From the IMG/VR virus record IMGVR_UViG_3300031998_000026, positions 51,528 to 115,527 of that record: DNA of 64,000 nucleotides; one strand, 5' to 3'. The notes beneath the pieces were generated by a model that was not told where the DNA came from, searched no databases, and was given only the letters and a program-made list of their open reading frames with translations. Made by a program: the position numbers and the translations under genes. Source of the DNA: a virus (lineage: Duplodnaviria > Heunggongvirae > Uroviricota > Caudoviricetes). How positions within the stretch are numbered: position 1 is the stretch's first letter; each line of letters begins with the position of its first letter. Shown piece after piece: positions 3,845 through 51,729 of this stretch.

Positions 3845-4345
3845 ATGTATTTTATGAGCAACGAACTGGCAAACAACGACTCTGGCGAGCTTGGGGACTT
3901 CCTTCGCAAATTCCTTGAGATGTACGACGACGACAGGAAGAGCCAGAGCAATTCCATTGCGAACGTTGAGCAGAAGGTCGACGACGTCGCCACGACCGTC
4001 GATGACGTTGTCACAACTATAGGCGTCATAAAGGAAAGTCAGTACCTCGAGCCGTGGCAGGCCGCAAAGGTGCAGGAGGCCGCGAAGCTACGCGTGTTCG
4101 ACCTGCTCAAGGAGTACTGCGAAGACAATGGCGAGGACATCGACATAATCTGCCACAGGTACTTCGGCAAGTTCGTGAGGGCCATCCACAACGACGCGAA
4201 GAAGGCCGGCCTCGAGATCGGGAAGATAATCTACACGCCGAAGAAGAACTACGAGCTGCTGCTCGAGTTCATCGGCAAGTGGTACCCGACGCGCGGGGTC
4301 AAGGGGCAGATGGAGCACTATGACAAGCTCGCATCCGACAGATAG
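3845..4345 (+). CDS. Hypothetical protein
   Basis: 166 aa ORF with coherent codon usage. Confidence 0.5.
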   Translation: MYFMSNELANNDSGELGDFLRKFLEMYDDDRKSQSNSIANVEQKVDDVATTVDDVVTTIGVIKESQYLEPWQAAKVQEAAKLRVFDLLKEYCEDNGEDIDIICHRYFGKFVRAIHNDAKKAGLEIGKIIYTPKKNYELLLEFIGKWYPTRGVKGQMEHYDKLASDR

Positions 4346-4496
4346 TCCACGTCATCAATAAGCAGGAAAGCCAAAAGCAAGCGCCCCCGCGAGCGGCAAC
4401 TCGCGAAGGCGACAGAGGGCGATGACCTTTAGTGCGGGCATCGCCCTCAATTCTAACTCAATCTGGCAAGCAGATCAGGAAAGAGGGCAAGAAGGC

Positions 4497-5387
4497 ATGA
4501 AGTACGAAGTAAAGAACGTGACACCCGAGATGGCGAAGGCGTACCTGGCGAGCAACTTCGACCACAACAGGAAGCTGTCCAGGCTGCACGTCAACGACCT
4601 CGCGAGCGCGATGCGCGACGGCACGTACGTCTCGCAGAACGGCCAGACCATAGTGGTGGGCGCCGACGGGACGCTCTACGACGGCCAGCACCGCATGAGC
4701 GCGATAGTCGAGTCGGGCACGACGCAGCAGATGCTCGTCTGCACGCTCGAGGAGTCCGACGACGCCATAGCCACGTTCAGGAGCGTGGACGGCGGCATGA
4801 AGAGGATGGCCTCGACGTTCATAAGTCGTCCGTACCAGCTCGAGAAGGCGGCGATATCGAGGATGTCGTACGGCATCGAGCAGGGGACGGCCCCGCTCAG
4901 GAGCGTGCTCGACGGCAGGGCGACGGCGAGGGAGAAGATCACCAGCAACCAGGCCGTGCGCTTCTTCTACGAGCACGAGGAGCTCATGACCGACGTCGCG
5001 ACCACGTCGAAGAGGGTGCAGCTCAAGGTCGGCAAGGGAAGCCCGTCCATGTTCGCGACGCTGGTCGTCCTGACCCGCTTCGTCGGCAGGGGCGAGCTCG
5101 TCGACCAGTTCATGGCCGACCTCAAGAGCGACATACCGCGCTCGGCGGCGGCGGTCATGCTCACCAACAGGATGCTCAGGGCCTACTCGGGCGGCAAGAA
5201 GCCCGACAACAAGTGGCAGCTCGGCATCCTGCTCGACGCGTACGAGAACTACCGCGCCGGCACCGCCAAGAAGCTCACGAGGTCCACCAGGATGATCGAC
5301 TACTACGACAGGCTCATGTCGGAGGCACGCGGGCGCGGCGCGCGCATAGAGATGCCCGAGAGACGCCTCGTCATGGCGTCGGCGTAG
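4497..5387 (+). CDS. ParB/Srx-like N-terminal nuclease-domain protein
   Basis: ParB-box-like LYDGQHRMSAIV with conserved DGQHR; RBS AAGAGGG before ATG 4497. Confidence 0.7.
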   Translation: MKYEVKNVTPEMAKAYLASNFDHNRKLSRLHVNDLASAMRDGTYVSQNGQTIVVGADGTLYDGQHRMSAIVESGTTQQMLVCTLEESDDAIATFRSVDGGMKRMASTFISRPYQLEKAAISRMSYGIEQGTAPLRSVLDGRATAREKITSNQAVRFFYEHEELMTDVATTSKRVQLKVGKGSPSMFATLVVLTRFVGRGELVDQFMADLKSDIPRSAAAVMLTNRMLRAYSGGKKPDNKWQLGILLDAYENYRAGTAKKLTRSTRMIDYYDRLMSEARGRGARIEMPERRLVMASA

Positions 5388-8727: not shown

Positions 8728-9573
8728 ATGGGACAGCTGGCAAAGGCGGCGGCGCAGTCGATGATAGCGCCGGCGCAGAACAAGTCGATCAAGTTCGTCG
8801 ACGACTCGGGCAACGCGATTGTCGTCAACCAGCAGGACGTGATGCAGTACATCTGCCCGACCGCGACCGAGCAGGAGGTCGTGTTCTTCATGGAGCTGTG
8901 CCGCGCGCAGCGGCTCAACCCCTTCATCAAGGAGGCGTACCTCGTCAAGTACAAGGGCGGCCCCGCGTCCATGATAACGGCAGAGATAGTGTTCGAGCGC
9001 AGGGCGAACGCGCACCCAGACTACGAGGGCATGGAGTGCGGCGTGGTGTACATGGACAGGGACGGCAACATACAGAAGCGCGAGGGCACGGCCACGTACA
9101 AGGTCGCGGGCGAGACGCTCATAGGCGGATGGGCGAGGGTCCACCGCAAGGGCCGCTCCGACTCCTACGCCGAGGTGTCGCTCGACGAGTACGACAAGGG
9201 ACAGTCGGTGTGGAAGACGATGCCCGGCGTCATGATCCACAAGTGCGCCAAGGGCGTCGCGCTCAGGCTCGCGTTCCCGTCCGACTTCCAGGGCATGTAC
9301 CTCGAGGAGGAGATGGGCGGGGCCCCGTCCGTCATAGAGGTGCACGACGCCGTGGTGACCGACGCCGAGGAGCCCGCGCAGGACGGGCCGACCGACGAGG
9401 AGAAGGCCGAGCTGCGCAGGCTCACCGACGAGTGCGTGGCCGCTGGCTACGACGGCGCAGAGATGGCGCGCTGGCTGTACGACAGGTACAAGGAGGGTGG
9501 CATCGAGGCCGCGCGCGAGGGGGCTGCGAACGCCATGTCCGCGAACGCGGAGACTGGCGAGGTCGCCGAGTGA
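8728..9573 (+). CDS. recT: RecT-family single-strand annealing recombinase
   Basis: RecT core FIKEAYLVKYKGGPASMITAEIVFERRA...VWKTMPGVMIHKCAKGVALRLAFP; paired with YqaJ. Confidence 0.8.
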   Translation: MGQLAKAAAQSMIAPAQNKSIKFVDDSGNAIVVNQQDVMQYICPTATEQEVVFFMELCRAQRLNPFIKEAYLVKYKGGPASMITAEIVFERRANAHPDYEGMECGVVYMDRDGNIQKREGTATYKVAGETLIGGWARVHRKGRSDSYAEVSLDEYDKGQSVWKTMPGVMIHKCAKGVALRLAFPSDFQGMYLEEEMGGAPSVIEVHDAVVTDAEEPAQDGPTDEEKAELRRLTDECVAAGYDGAEMARWLYDRYKEGGIEAAREGAANAMSANAETGEVAE

Positions 9574-9794: not shown

Positions 9795-9919
9795 CAGACG
9801 GGCGGGGCCGCGTGTCCCGCCCGCGACGTTTGCCGACGACGGTCGCGTGCGAAATCGATCTTACAAGGACCGTCCAATGGTCGCGTAGTCTCTTTTGAGA
9901 GGAGTTCCGTACGTCAATT

Positions 9920-10771
9920 ATGGAAGATATAACAAATTGTAGGTTTGGAGCTTTGACGCCAGTTGAGTTCGTTGGACATGGCAAGTGGAGATGTATCTGT
10001 GACTGCGGAAACACAGACTACGTGACACGTGCAGTGTTTCTTAAAAGAGGTGACATAAAGTCATGTGGCTGTGGAATACATCGATTTGGAGTGCTGACTG
10101 GAAGGCGATTTGGTCGTCTGACTGTATCTGAGTTTGTTGGAAGAAGCAGATGGCTTTGCAAGTGCGACTGCGGTAAAACCAAGGTTGTAAAGGCAAGCGA
10201 TTTGGTTCGCGGGGACGTCCAGTCTTGCGGATGTTACAAAATCGAACGGACGAAACAAGGCTCAAAGACGCATGGACTGAGCAAGAACAGCGGTAGATTG
10301 TACAGTTGTTGGATCTCAATGAGAGATAGGTGTAACAATCCAAACAATGCACATTATCATCGCTATGGCGGTCGTGGCATAAAAATATGTGACGAATGGT
10401 CTGACTATAAGAAGTTTTATGAATGGTCACACGGAAACGGATTCGACCCAAGCAAGCCATGGAAAGAGTGTACCTTGGATAGGATTGATAATGACGGCGA
10501 TTACTGTCCAGAAAACTGTCGTTGGACGACGCAGTCGATTCAAATCCTCAACCAAAAGCATGTGAGACACCATAGGCGAGGTGTTCCAGTCGATTTGGTC
10601 GGAGACAACGGAGAAGTAATCTCGACGTTTGAGTCGATTAGCGCCGCCGCAAAAGAGACTGGTTGTAAGTTCACGTCTGTAAGCAATACATGCCGAGGTG
10701 CTCAACATCGAGCGAACGGGATGATATTTCAGTATCACGACGAATCTCTTAGGAGGAAGTATGCAAGGTAG
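9920..10771 (+). CDS. HNH/NUMOD-type homing-endonuclease-like protein with tandem Zn-ribbon repeats (paralog 1 of 3)
   Basis: Two repeats FGxLTVxEFVGxxxWxCxCDCGxxxxVxxxxLxxGxxxSCGC, then YHRYGGRGIKICDEW and LDRIDNDGDYCPENCRW (HNH-like), and a C-terminal NUMOD-like FESISAAAKETG; paralogs at 15788 and 38587. Confidence 0.6.
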   Translation: MEDITNCRFGALTPVEFVGHGKWRCICDCGNTDYVTRAVFLKRGDIKSCGCGIHRFGVLTGRRFGRLTVSEFVGRSRWLCKCDCGKTKVVKASDLVRGDVQSCGCYKIERTKQGSKTHGLSKNSGRLYSCWISMRDRCNNPNNAHYHRYGGRGIKICDEWSDYKKFYEWSHGNGFDPSKPWKECTLDRIDNDGDYCPENCRWTTQSIQILNQKHVRHHRRGVPVDLVGDNGEVISTFESISAAAKETGCKFTSVSNTCRGAQHRANGMIFQYHDESLRRKYAR

Positions 10772-11186
10772 ACTCGGCGAAGACAGGGCTCAAATCATAC
10801 TCAACGCCATCCACAACGACCCAACGTTCTTCTTGAGTGACGGATGGTGCGAGGACCACAATGTGACCAAGGATGAGTGCGAGACGTTCCTCGAATACGG
10901 ACTGCGTCTCGCAAAGATGTACGACTGGCGCGCGGTCAACAGCGAGGTCGGGTCTGTCGAGGTGGGCCTGACGTTCACCAGCCACAGCGGCAAGGTCGGC
11001 TCCGAGGAGGAGAAGTGGACGGTGTTCGCCCCCCAGACGGACACGGCGAGGATAATGCGCGTCGCGGAGACGGGCAGGGTCACCGCGGTACTCACCCCCG
11101 AGCAGATGCCGCTGCCGCTCGACGAGGGCATGGGCGTCTTCGACATAGAGACGGGCGAGGTAATAAGTCAGTCACCCCACGCCTAA
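10761..11186 (+). CDS. Hypothetical protein whose C-terminal 8 codons lie inside the inserted mini-element
   Basis: ORF ends ...EVI|SQSPHA*; the last 8 codons fall within the left end of the omega-RNA-like element. Confidence 0.45.
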   Translation: MQGRLGEDRAQIILNAIHNDPTFFLSDGWCEDHNVTKDECETFLEYGLRLAKMYDWRAVNSEVGSVEVGLTFTSHSGKVGSEEEKWTVFAPQTDTARIMRVAETGRVTAVLTPEQMPLPLDEGMGVFDIETGEVISQSPHA

Positions 11187-11490
11187 ATGCGGGGGCTTGA
11201 AAGCCCTGACTGACTAGCCTGAGCGCCTCGGGCGCTACGTTGCCGACGAATGCATAGGCACCCTGGGATGTCCGCCCTAGTCCCAGGCACTGCGGCAGGT
11301 GGTTAAAGGCTCCGAGGGGTAGGAGCGGTGCCGCCTGCGGGAAACCGTCGGACAACATTGGCGAAGGGCAACTTACGGTTCGGCGCATACCGGCTTACAG
11401 CATAAAATGCGCCACTTCGTCAATATTGTGCAGCATCCTAGTAGAGAGGAGAGGTGCGGCTCCTCCCCATGCCTAAAGGCAGGGGTTCCC
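11167..11490 (+). mobile_element. Non-autonomous omega-RNA-only derivative of the IscB element (iscB deleted)
   Basis: Left end AGTCAGTCACCCCACGCCTAAATGCGGGGGCTTG, internal GGACAACATTGGCGA, and right-end hairpin CCTCCCCATGCCTAAAGGCAGGGG are all shared with the IscB element at 25414-26955; no ORF between the ends. Confidence 0.6.
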
Positions 11491-11503
11491 GCCGCACGAA
11501 ACT

Positions 11504-11875
11504 ATGATGGATAGCGGCTTCGAGCCCGAGTTCACGGGCCAGCACTTCGCGTGGGAGCTCGACCAGCTCAACGACCAGCTCGACGAGTCGATAGGTGCGT
11601 TGAGGATTGCGGGGTCGAAGAAGGCCGAGACCGAGAGGGACTACAGGGTCGCGCTCGCCAAGAAGATAATCGCTCTCAGGGCGCTGGGCACGCCCGTCAC
11701 GATCGTCAACGACCTCGCGAGGGGCGACGAGGAGGTCGCGACGCTGAGGCTCAAGAGGGACGTGGCGGAGTCCGAGTACTGGACCTCGCAGGAGGTAATA
11801 AACGTGGGCAAGCTCCGCGTGCGGACGGTCAACGACCAGATAGCGCGCGAGTGGGGCAGGCCAAGCAACATGTAG
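11504..11875 (+). CDS. Hypothetical protein
   Basis: 123 aa ORF immediately after the mini-element. Confidence 0.45.
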   Translation: MMDSGFEPEFTGQHFAWELDQLNDQLDESIGALRIAGSKKAETERDYRVALAKKIIALRALGTPVTIVNDLARGDEEVATLRLKRDVAESEYWTSQEVINVGKLRVRTVNDQIAREWGRPSNM

Positions 11876-11887
11876 GAGGGAGAACGG

Positions 11888-12184
11888 ATGAAGATACCAA
11901 GCGTTGAGGGCCACCTGACGTCCCTCGGCAACCTGGTGGTCGAGCAGACCGAGGACATGCACGTCAAGGTGACCATGAAGGCGACAAACCCGTCGAGGAT
12001 GCGGACGTCCCTGAGCGACTCTGGCGGCAGGGTCGTCCTCGACATGTGGGAGGGGCCACGCCCCCCGAAGGTGGGAGACGAGGTCAACGTGGACGGCAGC
12101 AGCTTTGCCATCACCAAGGTGGAGGCGTACGGCGGCGACATATGGGTGTACGGGGACAACGGACGGAAGGTCAGGTGGGAATAG
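11888..12184 (+). CDS. Hypothetical protein
   Basis: 98 aa ORF. Confidence 0.4.
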   Translation: MKIPSVEGHLTSLGNLVVEQTEDMHVKVTMKATNPSRMRTSLSDSGGRVVLDMWEGPRPPKVGDEVNVDGSSFAITKVEAYGGDIWVYGDNGRKVRWE

Positions 12185-12714
12185 TGTCGGCAGACATCAA
12201 CTCCGTGTCCGTGTCGGGGCACGTCACCAAGGACCCGACGCTTCGCTCGACGCAGTCGGGCACGGGCATACTCACGTTCTCGGTGGCGGTGAACGAGCGG
12301 CGCAAGACGCAGCAGGGCGAGTGGGAGGACGCGCCGTCCTTCGTGGACGTCGTCGTGTTCGGCAAGCCGACGGAGTGGCTCTCGAAGGACGTACGGAAGG
12401 GACGCTTCGTGTTCGTGCAGGGCAAGCTGAGGCAGACGTCGTGGGAGGACCGCGAGACGGGCCAGCGCAGGTCGAAGGTAGAGATAGTGGCCGACCTCGT
12501 CAAGTACGACAGGCTCCCCGACGCCGAGCGTCAGCAGGGCACGTACCAGCAGCCACAGCAGCAGGCGGCGTACCAGCAGCCACAGCAGGGAGCGTACCAG
12601 CAGCCACAGCAGCAGGCGGCGTACCAGCCGCCGCAGCCGACGAGGAGCGCCTACGTCGACCAGAGCCCCGCGCAGCAGCGTGACGACCCATACGGAGATT
12701 CAATCCCCTTCTAG
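12184..12714 (+). CDS. ssb: Single-stranded DNA-binding protein
   Basis: OB-fold core NSVSVSGHVTKDPTLRSTQSGTGILTFSVAVNERRK...RFVFVQGKLRQTSWEDRETGQRRSKVEIVADLV; Q/P-rich linker; acidic tail DDPYGDSIPF; GTG start overlapping the upstream stop. Confidence 0.85.
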   Translation: MSADINSVSVSGHVTKDPTLRSTQSGTGILTFSVAVNERRKTQQGEWEDAPSFVDVVVFGKPTEWLSKDVRKGRFVFVQGKLRQTSWEDRETGQRRSKVEIVADLVKYDRLPDAERQQGTYQQPQQQAAYQQPQQGAYQQPQQQAAYQPPQPTRSAYVDQSPAQQRDDPYGDSIPF

Positions 12715-25239: not shown

Positions 25240-25463
25240 GCACAGGCTTAATCGTTGCGGTCGTGACGCTTGTCATCGTGGCCGCGATATACATGGCCTA
25301 TACGATGGGCGAGATATCGGAGATGCGCCGAGCATTGGAGCGTATCGAGCGCAGGCAGAAGCTGAGCGACATACCCACGGAAAGGCGGCCAGACATAGAG
25401 GTGCTGCCGTATGAGTCAGTCACCCCACGCATAAATGCGGGGGCTTGCAATAGCCCCGACTGA
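25236..25463 (+). CDS. Small membrane protein with C-terminus replaced by the IscB-element insertion
   Basis: TM helix LIVAVVTLVIVAAIYMAY; the ORF reads into the element left end at ...EVLPYE|SVTPRINAG. Confidence 0.4.
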   Translation: MSTGLIVAVVTLVIVAAIYMAYTMGEISEMRRALERIERRQKLSDIPTERRPDIEVLPYESVTPRINAGACNSPD

Positions 25464-25647
25464 CCAGCCTGAGTGCTTCGGGCACTACGTTGTCCGCGTC
25501 ATGGCACCCCGAGATGCCTCCTCAGTCTCGGGCTCTGCCGCCCGTCATTAAACAGCCCGCAGGGGTGTGGGCAGTGTGGCGGGCACGACAAGCGCGGACA
25601 ACATTGGCGAGAGGAACATTACCGCCCTTCTGGGCGAGGAGGTATTT

Positions 25648-25650
<3 letters not shown>
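25414..25650 (+). ncRNA. IscB omega-RNA scaffold; the guide would be the roughly 16 nt 5' of the left end
   Basis: About 235 nt structured non-coding stretch directly upstream of and overlapping the iscB start, conserved in the iscB-less copy at 11167-11400. Confidence 0.55.
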
Positions 25651-26955
<1,305 letters not shown>

Positions 26956-26966
26956 GGTGAGGTCGC

Positions 26967-43946: not shown

Positions 43947-44019
43947 GGGGATGTAGCTCAGTTGGAAGAGCGCCGGACTGTCTCTCCGGAGGTCGTGGGA
44001 TCGAGGCCCATCATCCTCG
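43947..44019 (+). tRNA. tRNA-Asp (GTC); CCA encoded at 44020-44022
   Basis: Hand-folded: acceptor GGGGATG/CATCCTC, D arm GCTC/GAGC, anticodon stem CCGGA/TCCGG with loop CTGTCTC, T arm GTGGG/CCCAT. Confidence 0.6.
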
Positions 44020-44023
44020 CCAT

Positions 44024-44097
44024 TGGGGCGTAGCTCAGTCGGTATGAGCAGGGGCCTGTTAAGCCTCGTGTCGCTGGTTCGATCCCAGCCGTCCCAG
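44024..44097 (+). tRNA. tRNA-Asn (GTT); CCA encoded
   Basis: Acceptor TGGGGCG/CGTCCCA, anticodon loop CTGTTAA, T arm GCTGG-TTCGATC-CCAGC. Confidence 0.65.
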
Positions 44098-44101
44098 CCA
44101 T

Positions 44102-44173
44102 CGCGGAGTACAGTAGCGGTCACTGGCCGGATTCATGCTCCGGTGCACGTGGGTTCGAATCCCACCTCCGCCA
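44102..44173 (+). tRNA. tRNA-Met (CAT), elongator-type; CCA encoded
   Basis: Anticodon stem CCGGA/TCCGG with loop TTCATGC; T arm GTGGG-TTCGAAT-CCCAC; no GGG/CCC initiator stem signature. Confidence 0.6.
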
Positions 44174-44264
44174 CCAGACACATCCCGCCCCCTGAGGCGG
44201 TGGCCGTTGCGCGGGCCGGAAATCAGCGCCCTCTTGCGGAGTCAGGGGAACCCGCATGCACAAT

Positions 44265-44337
44265 GGGTCGTTAGCTCAGCTGGGAGAGCAGTTGGCTCTT
44301 AACCATCAGGTCCTGGGTTCGAGTCCCAGACGACCCA
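44265..44337 (+). tRNA. tRNA-Lys (CTT); CCA encoded
   Basis: Acceptor GGGTCGT/ACGACCC, anticodon loop CTCTTAA, T arm CTGGG-TTCGAGT-CCCAG. Confidence 0.65.
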
Positions 44338-44341
44338 CCAT

Positions 44342-44413
44342 ACTCCGTTAGCTCATCGGGTAGAGCAGTGGGCTTTTAACCCTCAGAGCAGAGTTCGAGC
44401 CTCTGGCGGAGTA
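44342..44413 (+). tRNA. tRNA-Lys (TTT); CCA encoded
   Basis: Acceptor ACTCCGT/GCGGAGT, anticodon loop CTTTTAA, T arm CAGAG-TTCGAGC-CTCTG. Confidence 0.65.
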
Positions 44414-44424
44414 CCAGGCAATAC

Positions 44425-44498
44425 GGAGTCCGTAGCACAACGGTTTAGTGCGCTGGGTTGTGGCCCCGGATACGAAGGTTCGACTCCTTTCGGACTCC
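44425..44498 (+). tRNA. tRNA-His (GTG) with G-1
   Basis: G-1 opposite C73, acceptor GAGTCCG/CGGACTC, anticodon loop TTGTGGC, T arm GAAGG-TTCGACT-CCTTT. Confidence 0.6.
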
Positions 44499-44505
44499 CA
44501 TCCAT

Positions 44506-44579
44506 TTCCCCGTAGTTCAATCCGGCAGAACGCCTGACTCTGGTTCAGGAGGTACCTTGTTCGACTCAAGGCGGGGAAG
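44506..44579 (+). tRNA. tRNA-Gln (CTG); CCA encoded
   Basis: Acceptor TTCCCCG/CGGGGAA, anticodon stem CCTGA/TCAGG with loop CTCTGGT, T arm CCTTG-TTCGACT-CAAGG. Confidence 0.65.
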
Positions 44580-44768
44580 CCAGAGAAATACCGCGCGATC
44601 GCACTAGTACCTGTCCGGAGGGGAAACTGCGACTGGGGCCAGCCACACTCTGAGCTCGCGCGTCCATACAGGAGGTCGTAGTAAAGGTGAATACGACGCG
44701 TTGCAACAGGGGGGACGCTTCCGCAACACGTAGATGCAAGGTTCGAGTCCTTGCCCTCCCAACCCAAC

Positions 44769-44840
44769 AGGCTCTTGGTGTCAAAGGAAGCACGCTGGTC
44801 TCCAAAACCAGAGGAGGGGGATCGATACCTCCAGGGCCTG
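44769..44840 (+). tRNA. tRNA-Trp (CCA); CCA encoded
   Basis: Acceptor AGGCTCT/AGGGCCT, anticodon stem CTGGT/ACCAG with loop CTCCAAA, T arm GGGGG-ATCGATA-CCTCC. Confidence 0.55.
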
Positions 44841-51443: not shown

Positions 51444-51729
51444 ATGCGCTCCTCTCTCGATGGTTTGACGGTCTCGCCGATATTATACGCCTGACCTTCT
51501 TGTCAGGCATGGTATGAATCACCGACCAATAGCCGCCGAACGCCCTGCCTATTATCATGTAGCGTCTTAGGTCGCCTTTTGTTTGCTTTGCTGGCACCGT
51601 GACGCTGTTCGGGTCAGACCACACCTGCATTGCGTAGTCGAAGTTTATGCCGTGCAGCTCCTCGTTAATCGCGTCCTTCGCCTCGTCCCACTCGAAGAAC
51701 AGGTCTATCTCCTCCAATCGAATCACCTC
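51421..51729 (-). CDS. brnT: BrnT-type toxin (RelE/ParE-fold ribonuclease, DUF497)
   Basis: FEWDEAKDAINEELHGINFDYAMQVWSD ... RRIISARPSNHRERSAY. Confidence 0.65.
   Translation of the reverse strand, partial: EVIRLEEIDLFFEWDEAKDAINEELHGINFDYAMQVWSDPNSVTVPAKQTKGDLRRYMIIGRAFGGYWSVIHTMPDKKVRRIISARPSNHRERSAYDRHLNG

Follow-up and report, generated by a model that had tools for sequence, protein, structure and literature searches.

What is an IscB omega-RNA doing between two phage genes when no nuclease gene accompanies it, and could the IscB protein encoded elsewhere on the same genome still use it? The locus in question lies at 11.2 kb in a 64,000-nucleotide stretch of a Caudoviricetes genome (IMG/VR record IMGVR_UViG_3300031998_000026, positions 51,528 to 115,527), hereafter the window, which also carries a full IscB element at 25.4 kb. 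We refer to the IscB-less copy as the orphan and to the full element as the resident. The best reading of the orphan places it in the ISC branch of the IS200/IS605 superfamily, as a non-autonomous element that encodes no protein and resembles a palindrome-associated transposable element (PATE). Its make-up is best explained as a right-end hairpin with a full omega-RNA scaffold, a short interior, leftovers of the iscB 3′ end and a left-end hairpin.

The omega-RNA scaffold of the orphan is complete. It matches the Rfam HEARO model (RF02033, gathering score 83) on the plus strand from the first to the last of the 211 model positions (11167–11376, 141.9 bits, E = 1.5e-29), and the resident scaffold (25415–25622, plus strand) matches the same model with 175.9 bits; a permissive Rfam scan detects no third HEARO copy in the 64-kb window. 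The orphan forms 53 of the 55 consensus base pairs and the resident 51. When ten scaffolds are compared (five IscB-less and five IscB-linked), pairing is preserved in 96.8% of cells, as against 79.5% in column shuffles and 33–37% when the partners are slid, and both sides have changed at 33 of the 55 consensus pairs. These pairing and covariation results indicate that selection has preserved the orphan fold since the divergence of the two copies and that it is not decaying. The orphan scaffold is not immediately followed by an IscB open reading frame (ORF), which leaves its membership of RF02033 unaffected; the end hairpin follows after only 85 nt without a nuclease ORF, and the nearest iscB is the resident gene at 25639–26955. 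Within the roughly 340-bp element the ORF list contains nothing except the end of the upstream gene and antisense frames judged spurious. The original prediction, made from the DNA letters alone, had described an orphan reduced to its omega-RNA, and in this it was correct.

Both transposon ends are also retained. The alignment of the two copies runs from AGTCAGTCACCCC through GGACAACATTGGCGA at the left and resumes at the right over about 50 nt (GAGAGGAG..TCCTCCCCATGCCTAAAGGCAGGGG..CCG), and a 21-nt hairpin, CCCCATGCCTAAAGGCAGGGG, is identical at 11465–11485 and 26918–26938. The shared left end and right-end hairpin first noticed in the letters are therefore real, and the pairwise alignment proposed as a check shows similarity over the whole scaffold and both ends, beyond short GC hairpins and far above chance. 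The 21-nt hairpin and its counterpart at 11175–11195 stand in direct orientation and are 86% alike. The former recurs in at least 120 metagenome contigs (L046–L165) from soil, sludge, gut, rumen and aquatic samples, many of them carrying it near a contig end, and at least three kinds of end context surround it there, among them IS200/IS605 elements that carry the transposase TnpA. The TnpA of IS608, used as a query, matches more than 13 of these hairpin-bearing loci with 57–67% identity. Where TnpA lies near the hairpin (as in L051 and L092), it is about 60–85 nt distant and on the strand opposite to the plus orientation of the hairpin. Because of this strand and position we assign the hairpin at 11465–11485 to the left end and that at 11175–11195 to the right end in the IS200/IS605 convention; the end hairpins are named in that sense, and the boundaries of the elements by their coordinates. 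This assignment agrees with the published arrangement in which the scaffold of an IscB omega-RNA derives from the right end, the guide lies outside the transposon and transcription enters from upstream (Meers et al. 2023, 10.1101/2023.03.14.532601).

At its right boundary the orphan belongs to a class of ends that read ..AGGA.AGGCGC..CCT, the hairpin, T.TCCCGCGCC....CG/ATGA, where the slash marks the boundary. All but one of the right ends in this class terminate at ATGA (that of L154 has ATGG) and the sequence beyond is variable, in agreement with the CGATGA-3′ terminus described for ISC elements (Kapitonov et al. 2016, PMC4810608). Just inside this end, positions 11441–11476 translate as VERRGAAPPHA followed by a stop, and the C terminus of the resident IscB reads TERRGATSSPCLKAGASVTQ before its own stop, so a frame-shifted remnant of the iscB 3′ end survives in the orphan. 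Between scaffold and remnant, about 65 nt of interior match neither the resident copy nor any fetched locus in sensitive BLAST and nhmmer searches (query 11371–11465).

The orphan is a true insertion, because the site is uninterrupted in two related contigs (L166 and L167), whose versions of the flanking gene product are 99% and 86% identical to that of the window. Related phages with an empty site had been suggested as a test, and here they exist; L167 is a 72-kb relative that has its gene order in common with the window (RusA-YqaJ-RecT-...-SSB). The empty site reads GGTAATACGTGGATAGC, and the window has GGTAATAAGT, then the insert CAGTCA...CTATGAT, then GGATAGC. Over a longer span, the empty site GACGGGCGAGGTAATACGTGGATAGCGGCTTCGAG corresponds in the window to GACGGGCGAGGTAATAAGT, an insert running from CAGTCACC to AAACTATGAT, and GGATAGCGGCTTCGAG. 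Compared with the empty sites, this is a site-specific insertion at a 4-bp target, with no target-site duplication at either junction. We weighed three ways of parsing it, N/ATGA, GT/GA and GT/GG. Under GT/GG the element spans 11169–11508, has the termini 5′-CA..AT-3′ and differs from the relatives by one substitution without any indel, which makes it the best fit to the empty site; under N/ATGA it spans 11167–11503 with 5′-GT..-3′ and requires a 3-nt indel relative to the relatives, but fits the family consensus. Both GT/GG and N/ATGA are known ISC targets, with termini 5′-CA..AT-3′ and 5′-GT..CG-3′ (Kapitonov et al. 2016, PMC4810608). Four samples yielded assemblies of the phage with the insertion, one of them a 117.8-kb contig. 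BLAST of positions 9900–12700 against GenBank phages gave a single weak match, to the HEARO part, and there is no close reference phage. An IMG/VR search with the upstream protein found no match, and the downstream protein matched only relatives of about 50% identity, too distant for an empty-site comparison.

The insertion has altered both neighbouring genes. It sits at the stop/start overlap of two co-oriented genes of the phage recombination module, where it parts the start codon of the second gene from its ribosome-binding site. Without the insert, the TAG stop of the upstream gene overlaps the GTG start of the downstream gene (GTG GAT AGC), and a GAGG Shine-Dalgarno sequence lies 7 nt 5′ of that GTG (GAGGTAATACGTG). 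The insertion re-forms an ATG start from the element-terminal AT and the G of the target. The downstream gene (11504–11875) is called in four independent assemblies, and its homologue in L167 begins GTG GAT AGC. Homologues of the upstream ORF (10761–11186) are 134–137 amino acids long; the closest, P0001 (99% identical) and P0002 (86%), have 137 residues ending in ..GEVIRG, and the window protein has 141 ending in ..GEVISQSPHA. Fusion of the element into the 3′ end of a gene, and the ending of this ORF inside the element, had been anticipated from the letters and are upheld by the relatives, but the claim that its last 8 codons are rewritten is not, as 2 native codons are replaced by 6. The displacement of the downstream Shine-Dalgarno sequence, which had been overlooked, is of greater consequence than the altered upstream tail.

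The candidate partner nuclease is the IscB of the resident element. Its gene encodes 438 amino acids (ATG at 25639 to a stop ending at 26955) with RRXRR and HNH domains (Pfam E = 5.8e-65), and the protein is homologous to solved IscB structures, with conserved nuclease motifs recognisable in the alignment. Its ORF runs through the end hairpin, and its TGA stop is supplied by the boundary ATGA at 26952–26955. A copy of the resident element with 89% DNA and 91% protein identity lies on a 117.7-kb contig of a rumen Erysipelotrichaceae metagenome-assembled genome (L171, 2252–3814). The homology covers 25415–26960 (about 1.55 kb) and ends at the right in ..GCAAT/AAAG, with ATAA in place of ATGA; the flanks are AT-richer and unrelated. 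Because this copy stands in a different context, we place the left boundary of the full element at 25415 and conclude that the element has moved recently. Its right end is ambiguous by a few nucleotides. An empty site for the full element was not found, as all contigs with an identical downstream protein carry it.

IscB-less elements of this kind recur elsewhere. HEARO copies above the Rfam threshold that lack iscB occur at four metagenome loci (L086, L110, L146 and L149) and in three viral contigs (L285, L276 and L277, the last as copy L277b), each with the end hairpin within 85–175 nt of the scaffold, and partial copies occur at L154, L165 and L073. Four of these mini-elements (L285, L276, L149 and L146) are 79–92% identical to one another. 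Most carry three extra hairpins after the scaffold, namely hp1 (CCCGCAAGGG), a covarying hp2 with the loop ..AGGTAACTYAAA, and hp3 (CCCTTCGGGG), none of which matches an Rfam family, together with about 45 nt homologous to the iscB 3′ end. The orphan keeps a stem resembling hp2 (11382–11388 with 11407–11413); hp1 and hp3 are absent from it. A mini-element and a full element occur together in just two viral contigs, the window phage and L277 (IMGVR_UViG_3300037067_013660, 197 kb), where they lie on the same strand 2.6 kb apart. In both, among the IscB-linked scaffolds compared, the nearest relative of the mini scaffold is the co-resident full copy: in tree and pairwise comparisons the orphan is closest to the resident (0.78, the runners-up scoring 0.75 and 0.74), and the L277 mini is closest to its full neighbour (0.70, against at most 0.67). 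The L277 mini terminates at the ATG of a 364-residue ORF.

The feature coordinates are collected in Table 1.

Table 1. Coordinates of the IscB-less element, the full IscB element, the adjoining genes and comparable loci in other contigs.
Feature	Coordinates	Strand	Basis or remark
Whole IscB-less mini-element (~340 bp)	11167..11508	+	Boundaries ambiguous by 2-5 nt
Presumed omega-RNA guide ACGGGCGAGGTAATAA (phage DNA 5′ of the scaffold)	11151..11166	+	Published layout; guide function presumed from it
HEARO / IscB omega-RNA scaffold, full length	11167..11376	+	Rfam RF02033, consensus pairing, covariation
Subterminal hairpin CCCCACGCCTAAATGCGGGGG	11175..11195	+	Right end (IS200/IS605 convention); first internal omega-RNA stem-loop
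Interior spacer	11377..11440	+	One stem, 11382-11388 / 11407-11413, GGCGCAT..ATGCGCC
Frame-shifted remnant of iscB 3′ codons	11441..11461	+	Translation and DNA alignment; also the purine-rich Shine-Dalgarno-like stretch GAGAGGAGAGG
Extended stem-loop enclosing the 21-nt hairpin (11465-11485)	11454..11497	+	Inverted repeat I1; left end (IS200/IS605 convention)
ATGA right-boundary tetranucleotide	11504..11507	+	Conserved target of the family, TAM-like (TAM, target-adjacent motif); gives the downstream gene its new start codon
Upstream phage gene, tail now element-derived	10761..11186	+	Homologues P0001, P0002
GAGG, native Shine-Dalgarno sequence of the downstream gene	11157..11160	+	Now ~340 nt from the start codon
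Downstream phage gene, 123 aa	11504..11875	+	Start ATG at 11504 or 11507; ORF list
Complete IscB element	25415..26955	+	Omega-RNA 25415-25622, iscB 25639-26955, hairpin 26918-26938, ATGA 26952-26955
Full element of L277	HEARO 10647-10433; iscB 10476-9130		
Mini-element of L277	7871 to ~7500		
Mini-elements with hp1-hp3, unrelated samples	L149 4946-5058; L146 743-852; L154 58-168; L285 ~4297-4412; L276 ~4411-4530		

On balance, and with moderate confidence, we favour the view that the orphan provides an omega-RNA guided by 16 nt of phage DNA, which the resident IscB would load and direct against phage genomes that lack the insertion. We infer transcription, loading, cleavage and homing from the published OMEGA mechanism. 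Read-through from the upstream phage genes would yield an RNA whose 5′ 16 nt are the presumed guide and whose body is the scaffold; the spacer of OgeuIscB is likewise 16 nt. The neighbouring genes are all co-oriented with the mini-element, and a scan found no promoter or terminator of its own in or beside it; this arrangement is in keeping with the read-through transcription that published work calls for. The resident IscB, whose gene lies 14 kb downstream, would bind this RNA in trans, a step that is plausible from the sequences of the two scaffolds. The complex would then cut copies of the locus without the insertion, either the donor joint left by TnpA excision or the genome of a co-infecting relative, and recombinational repair from an insertion-bearing genome would restore or spread the element (restorative or non-restorative homing). 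To transpose, the element would depend on a Y1 transposase (TnpA) from another source. The guide matches the empty sites of the related phages at 15 of 16 positions, followed by GTGG, which would suit the NWRR portion of a TAM like that of OgeuIscB. With up to 3 mismatches allowed, the window holds no further target for either the orphan or the resident guide. The 16 nt at 11151–11166 are a different upstream (guide) sequence, as suggested earlier.

Several observations weigh against such a role. The empty sites mismatch the guide at the TAM-proximal base and offer GTGG in place of ATGA, so they may not be cleavable. The orphan scaffold is 22–28% diverged from that of the resident, and its acceptance by the resident IscB is conjectural. 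No TnpA is found in the window, nor in the Pfam-annotated gene tables for 4.7–37.3 kb, and without it restorative homing after excision may rarely be needed. Searches with exact patterns from the interior find no second site of this mini-element in viral contigs or genomes, so that mobility of this particular copy is conjectural, and a gapped scaffold-to-hairpin pattern has no match in viral contigs, giving no evidence that this exact element is multi-copy. The loss of the Shine-Dalgarno sequence of the downstream gene is, moreover, a cost that homing does not explain.

Some of the same facts are what would be expected of a passive hitch-hiker, that is, a genuine mini-transposon whose omega-RNA the resident IscB does not use, either because the scaffold is incompatible or because no productive transcript is made; it would persist as a nearly neutral insertion that is not excised without TnpA. 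The scaffold divergence, the missing TnpA, the lack of a second copy and the absence of the hp1 and hp3 that other mini-elements conserve all suit this account, and the structure could have been conserved in a previous host and not in this phage. Set against it are the 53 pairs that the orphan has kept, an orientation that suits read-through transcription, and the finding that in two independent phage contigs the scaffold nearest to the mini is that of the co-resident IscB, which random hitch-hiking does not predict; we therefore regard the hitch-hiker as the chief rival, but a somewhat unlikely one. Far less probable, in our judgement hardly credible, is the origin proposed in the original prediction, in which the resident element was duplicated within the phage and the copy then lost its interior in a recent deletion. 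The identical end hairpin, the nearly identical left terminus, the status of the resident as nearest known scaffold and the remnant of iscB 3′ codons (ERRGA) would all follow from it. The two scaffolds, however, are only 72% identical by alignment columns (78% in pairwise global alignment), when the L171 copy is 89% identical to the resident over all 1.55 kb. Among the 55 consensus pairs, 40 are identical in orphan and resident, 8 have changed on both sides yet remain paired, 1 shows a wobble change and 6 are broken in one or the other; in addition, about 65 nt of the interior have no resident counterpart, and the tails beyond the hairpin differ in length and sequence. Descent from this very IscB element is thus unsupported. 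Because of the scaffold divergence, the unmatched interior and the comparable mini-elements in unrelated metagenomes and viral contigs, we consider the orphan an independent, older insertion from the same family.

A different kind of explanation starts from the new start codon. At 21 of 33 right ends of the orphan class the target ATG begins an ORF of 60 codons or more, compared with 32% of all ATGA tetranucleotides at the same loci (binomial p of about 2e-4, for insertions that are not fully independent). A purine-rich motif resembling a Shine-Dalgarno sequence (AAAGGAG; GAGAGGAGAGG in the orphan) lies a few nucleotides 5′ of the extended end-hairpin stem. Across the right ends (window 11444–11506 and 32 related ones) the target ATG falls 6–10 nt 3′ of that stem, 6 nt in the orphan. 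Formation of the stem in the mRNA could bring the motif to a normal distance from the ATG and so compensate for the displaced native Shine-Dalgarno sequence. The insert might then be a domesticated structured RNA or translation module that tunes the downstream gene independently of any nuclease. Replacement of the native arrangement of Shine-Dalgarno sequence and start, the position of motif, stem and ATG, and the excess of opened ORFs speak for it. The conserved and covarying part is nevertheless the IscB scaffold, which a role in translation does not require, close relatives do without the insert, and the motif has a simpler cause of conservation, in that the same nucleotides encode the IscB C terminus in full-length elements. 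We judge this explanation improbable. A combination is also conceivable, although unlikely: IscB-less mini-elements would be widespread, selected and portable guide cassettes, not debris, each partnered by a cognate IscB that the same phage encodes, and a Shine-Dalgarno sequence bridged by the left-end hairpin would restore translation of the gene whose ATG(A) start is targeted and so make their insertion at operon junctions tolerable. If so, they would add a second specificity for homing or competitor killing, a two-guide stage on the way from OMEGA systems towards arrays.

Each component of the system has been described before: the HEARO omega-RNA, the ISC termini and targets, PATE-like derivatives, omega-RNAs used in trans, and, as a concept, homing into co-infecting phages. 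The orphan shares with HEARO/IscB omega-RNAs (RF02033) a full-length model match, a common set of helices that shows compensatory changes, and a guide position 5′ of the scaffold, but it is not followed by an IscB or HNH ORF and reaches the transposon end after 85 nt. It resembles non-autonomous ISC transposons (PMC4810608) in its subterminal hairpins, termini, GT/GG or N/ATGA target and lack of duplication, and in that IscB lies on the strand opposite to TnpA and TnpB of elements with the same ends; ISC elements, however, encode IscB and measure 1.3–1.7 kb, whereas the mini-element has about 340 bp and has lost the gene. PATEs often encode omega-RNAs that are acted on in trans (Meers et al. 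2023, 10.1101/2023.03.14.532601). Like them, the orphan is a protein-less IS200/IS605 derivative with both ends and an omega-RNA that needs the nuclease of another element, and the earlier description of it as non-autonomous and PATE-like is well supported by the kept ends and the missing protein gene. The published remark concerns mainly TnpB-type elements on a Geobacillus chromosome; here the element is of the IscB type, in a phage, with a candidate IscB on the same genome.

The likeness to miniature inverted-repeat transposable elements (MITEs), also put forward earlier, does not extend beyond a short, non-coding, non-autonomous transposon derivative. The mini-element belongs to a family with a single-strand Y1 transposase, has no terminal inverted repeats and made no target duplication. 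We rejected identity with a MITE on its direct-repeat ends, as in IS200/IS605, and the absence of a duplication at the junctions. Altae-Tran and colleagues reportedly described, in 2021, stand-alone omega-RNA loci without an adjacent nuclease gene and proposed that they act in trans; relative to those loci, the present case documents both transposon ends and the empty site.

What is somewhat new is the documentation, on a phage, of a guide element without iscB alongside a full IscB element whose scaffold matches it, together with the empty site of relatives and the recurrent architecture of the mini-elements. It is a natural case of an omega-RNA parted from its nuclease, with filled site, empty site and candidate partner nuclease, the first and last on one phage genome. 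If the resident IscB uses the orphan, one phage nuclease would have two guides, and the element could gain super-Mendelian inheritance or exclude co-infecting relatives at a second locus; it would then illustrate the separability of guide and effector before CRISPR arrays. The mini-element also offers a test case for cross-compatibility between diverged omega-RNA scaffolds, and the recurring design, with its extra conserved hairpins, Shine-Dalgarno-like motif and insertion at start codons, merits a systematic census.

Other features of the region bear on its history. Directly upstream of the gene struck by the orphan, a 283-residue ORF (9920–10771, plus strand) forms an island of 44–49% GC in DNA of 60–70% GC and is not at this position in L167. 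It has a weak Pfam match of the I-HmuI NUMOD-like type and resembles a free-standing HNH homing endonuclease. L167 has, at the following gene junction of the recombination module, a 64-residue gene (8814–9008) that matches Cas12f1-like_TNB, the zinc ribbon of TnpB, which suggests that the region has repeatedly received elements of the IS200/IS605 type. One gene downstream of the resident IscB element, the window encodes a 210-residue formate/nitrite transporter (PF01226; 27299–27931, plus strand), an unusual cargo for a phage. An RtcB ligase gene lies at about 35.9–37.0 kb, and nine tRNA genes cluster at 43947–44840, with an isolated tRNA gene at 2613–2686.

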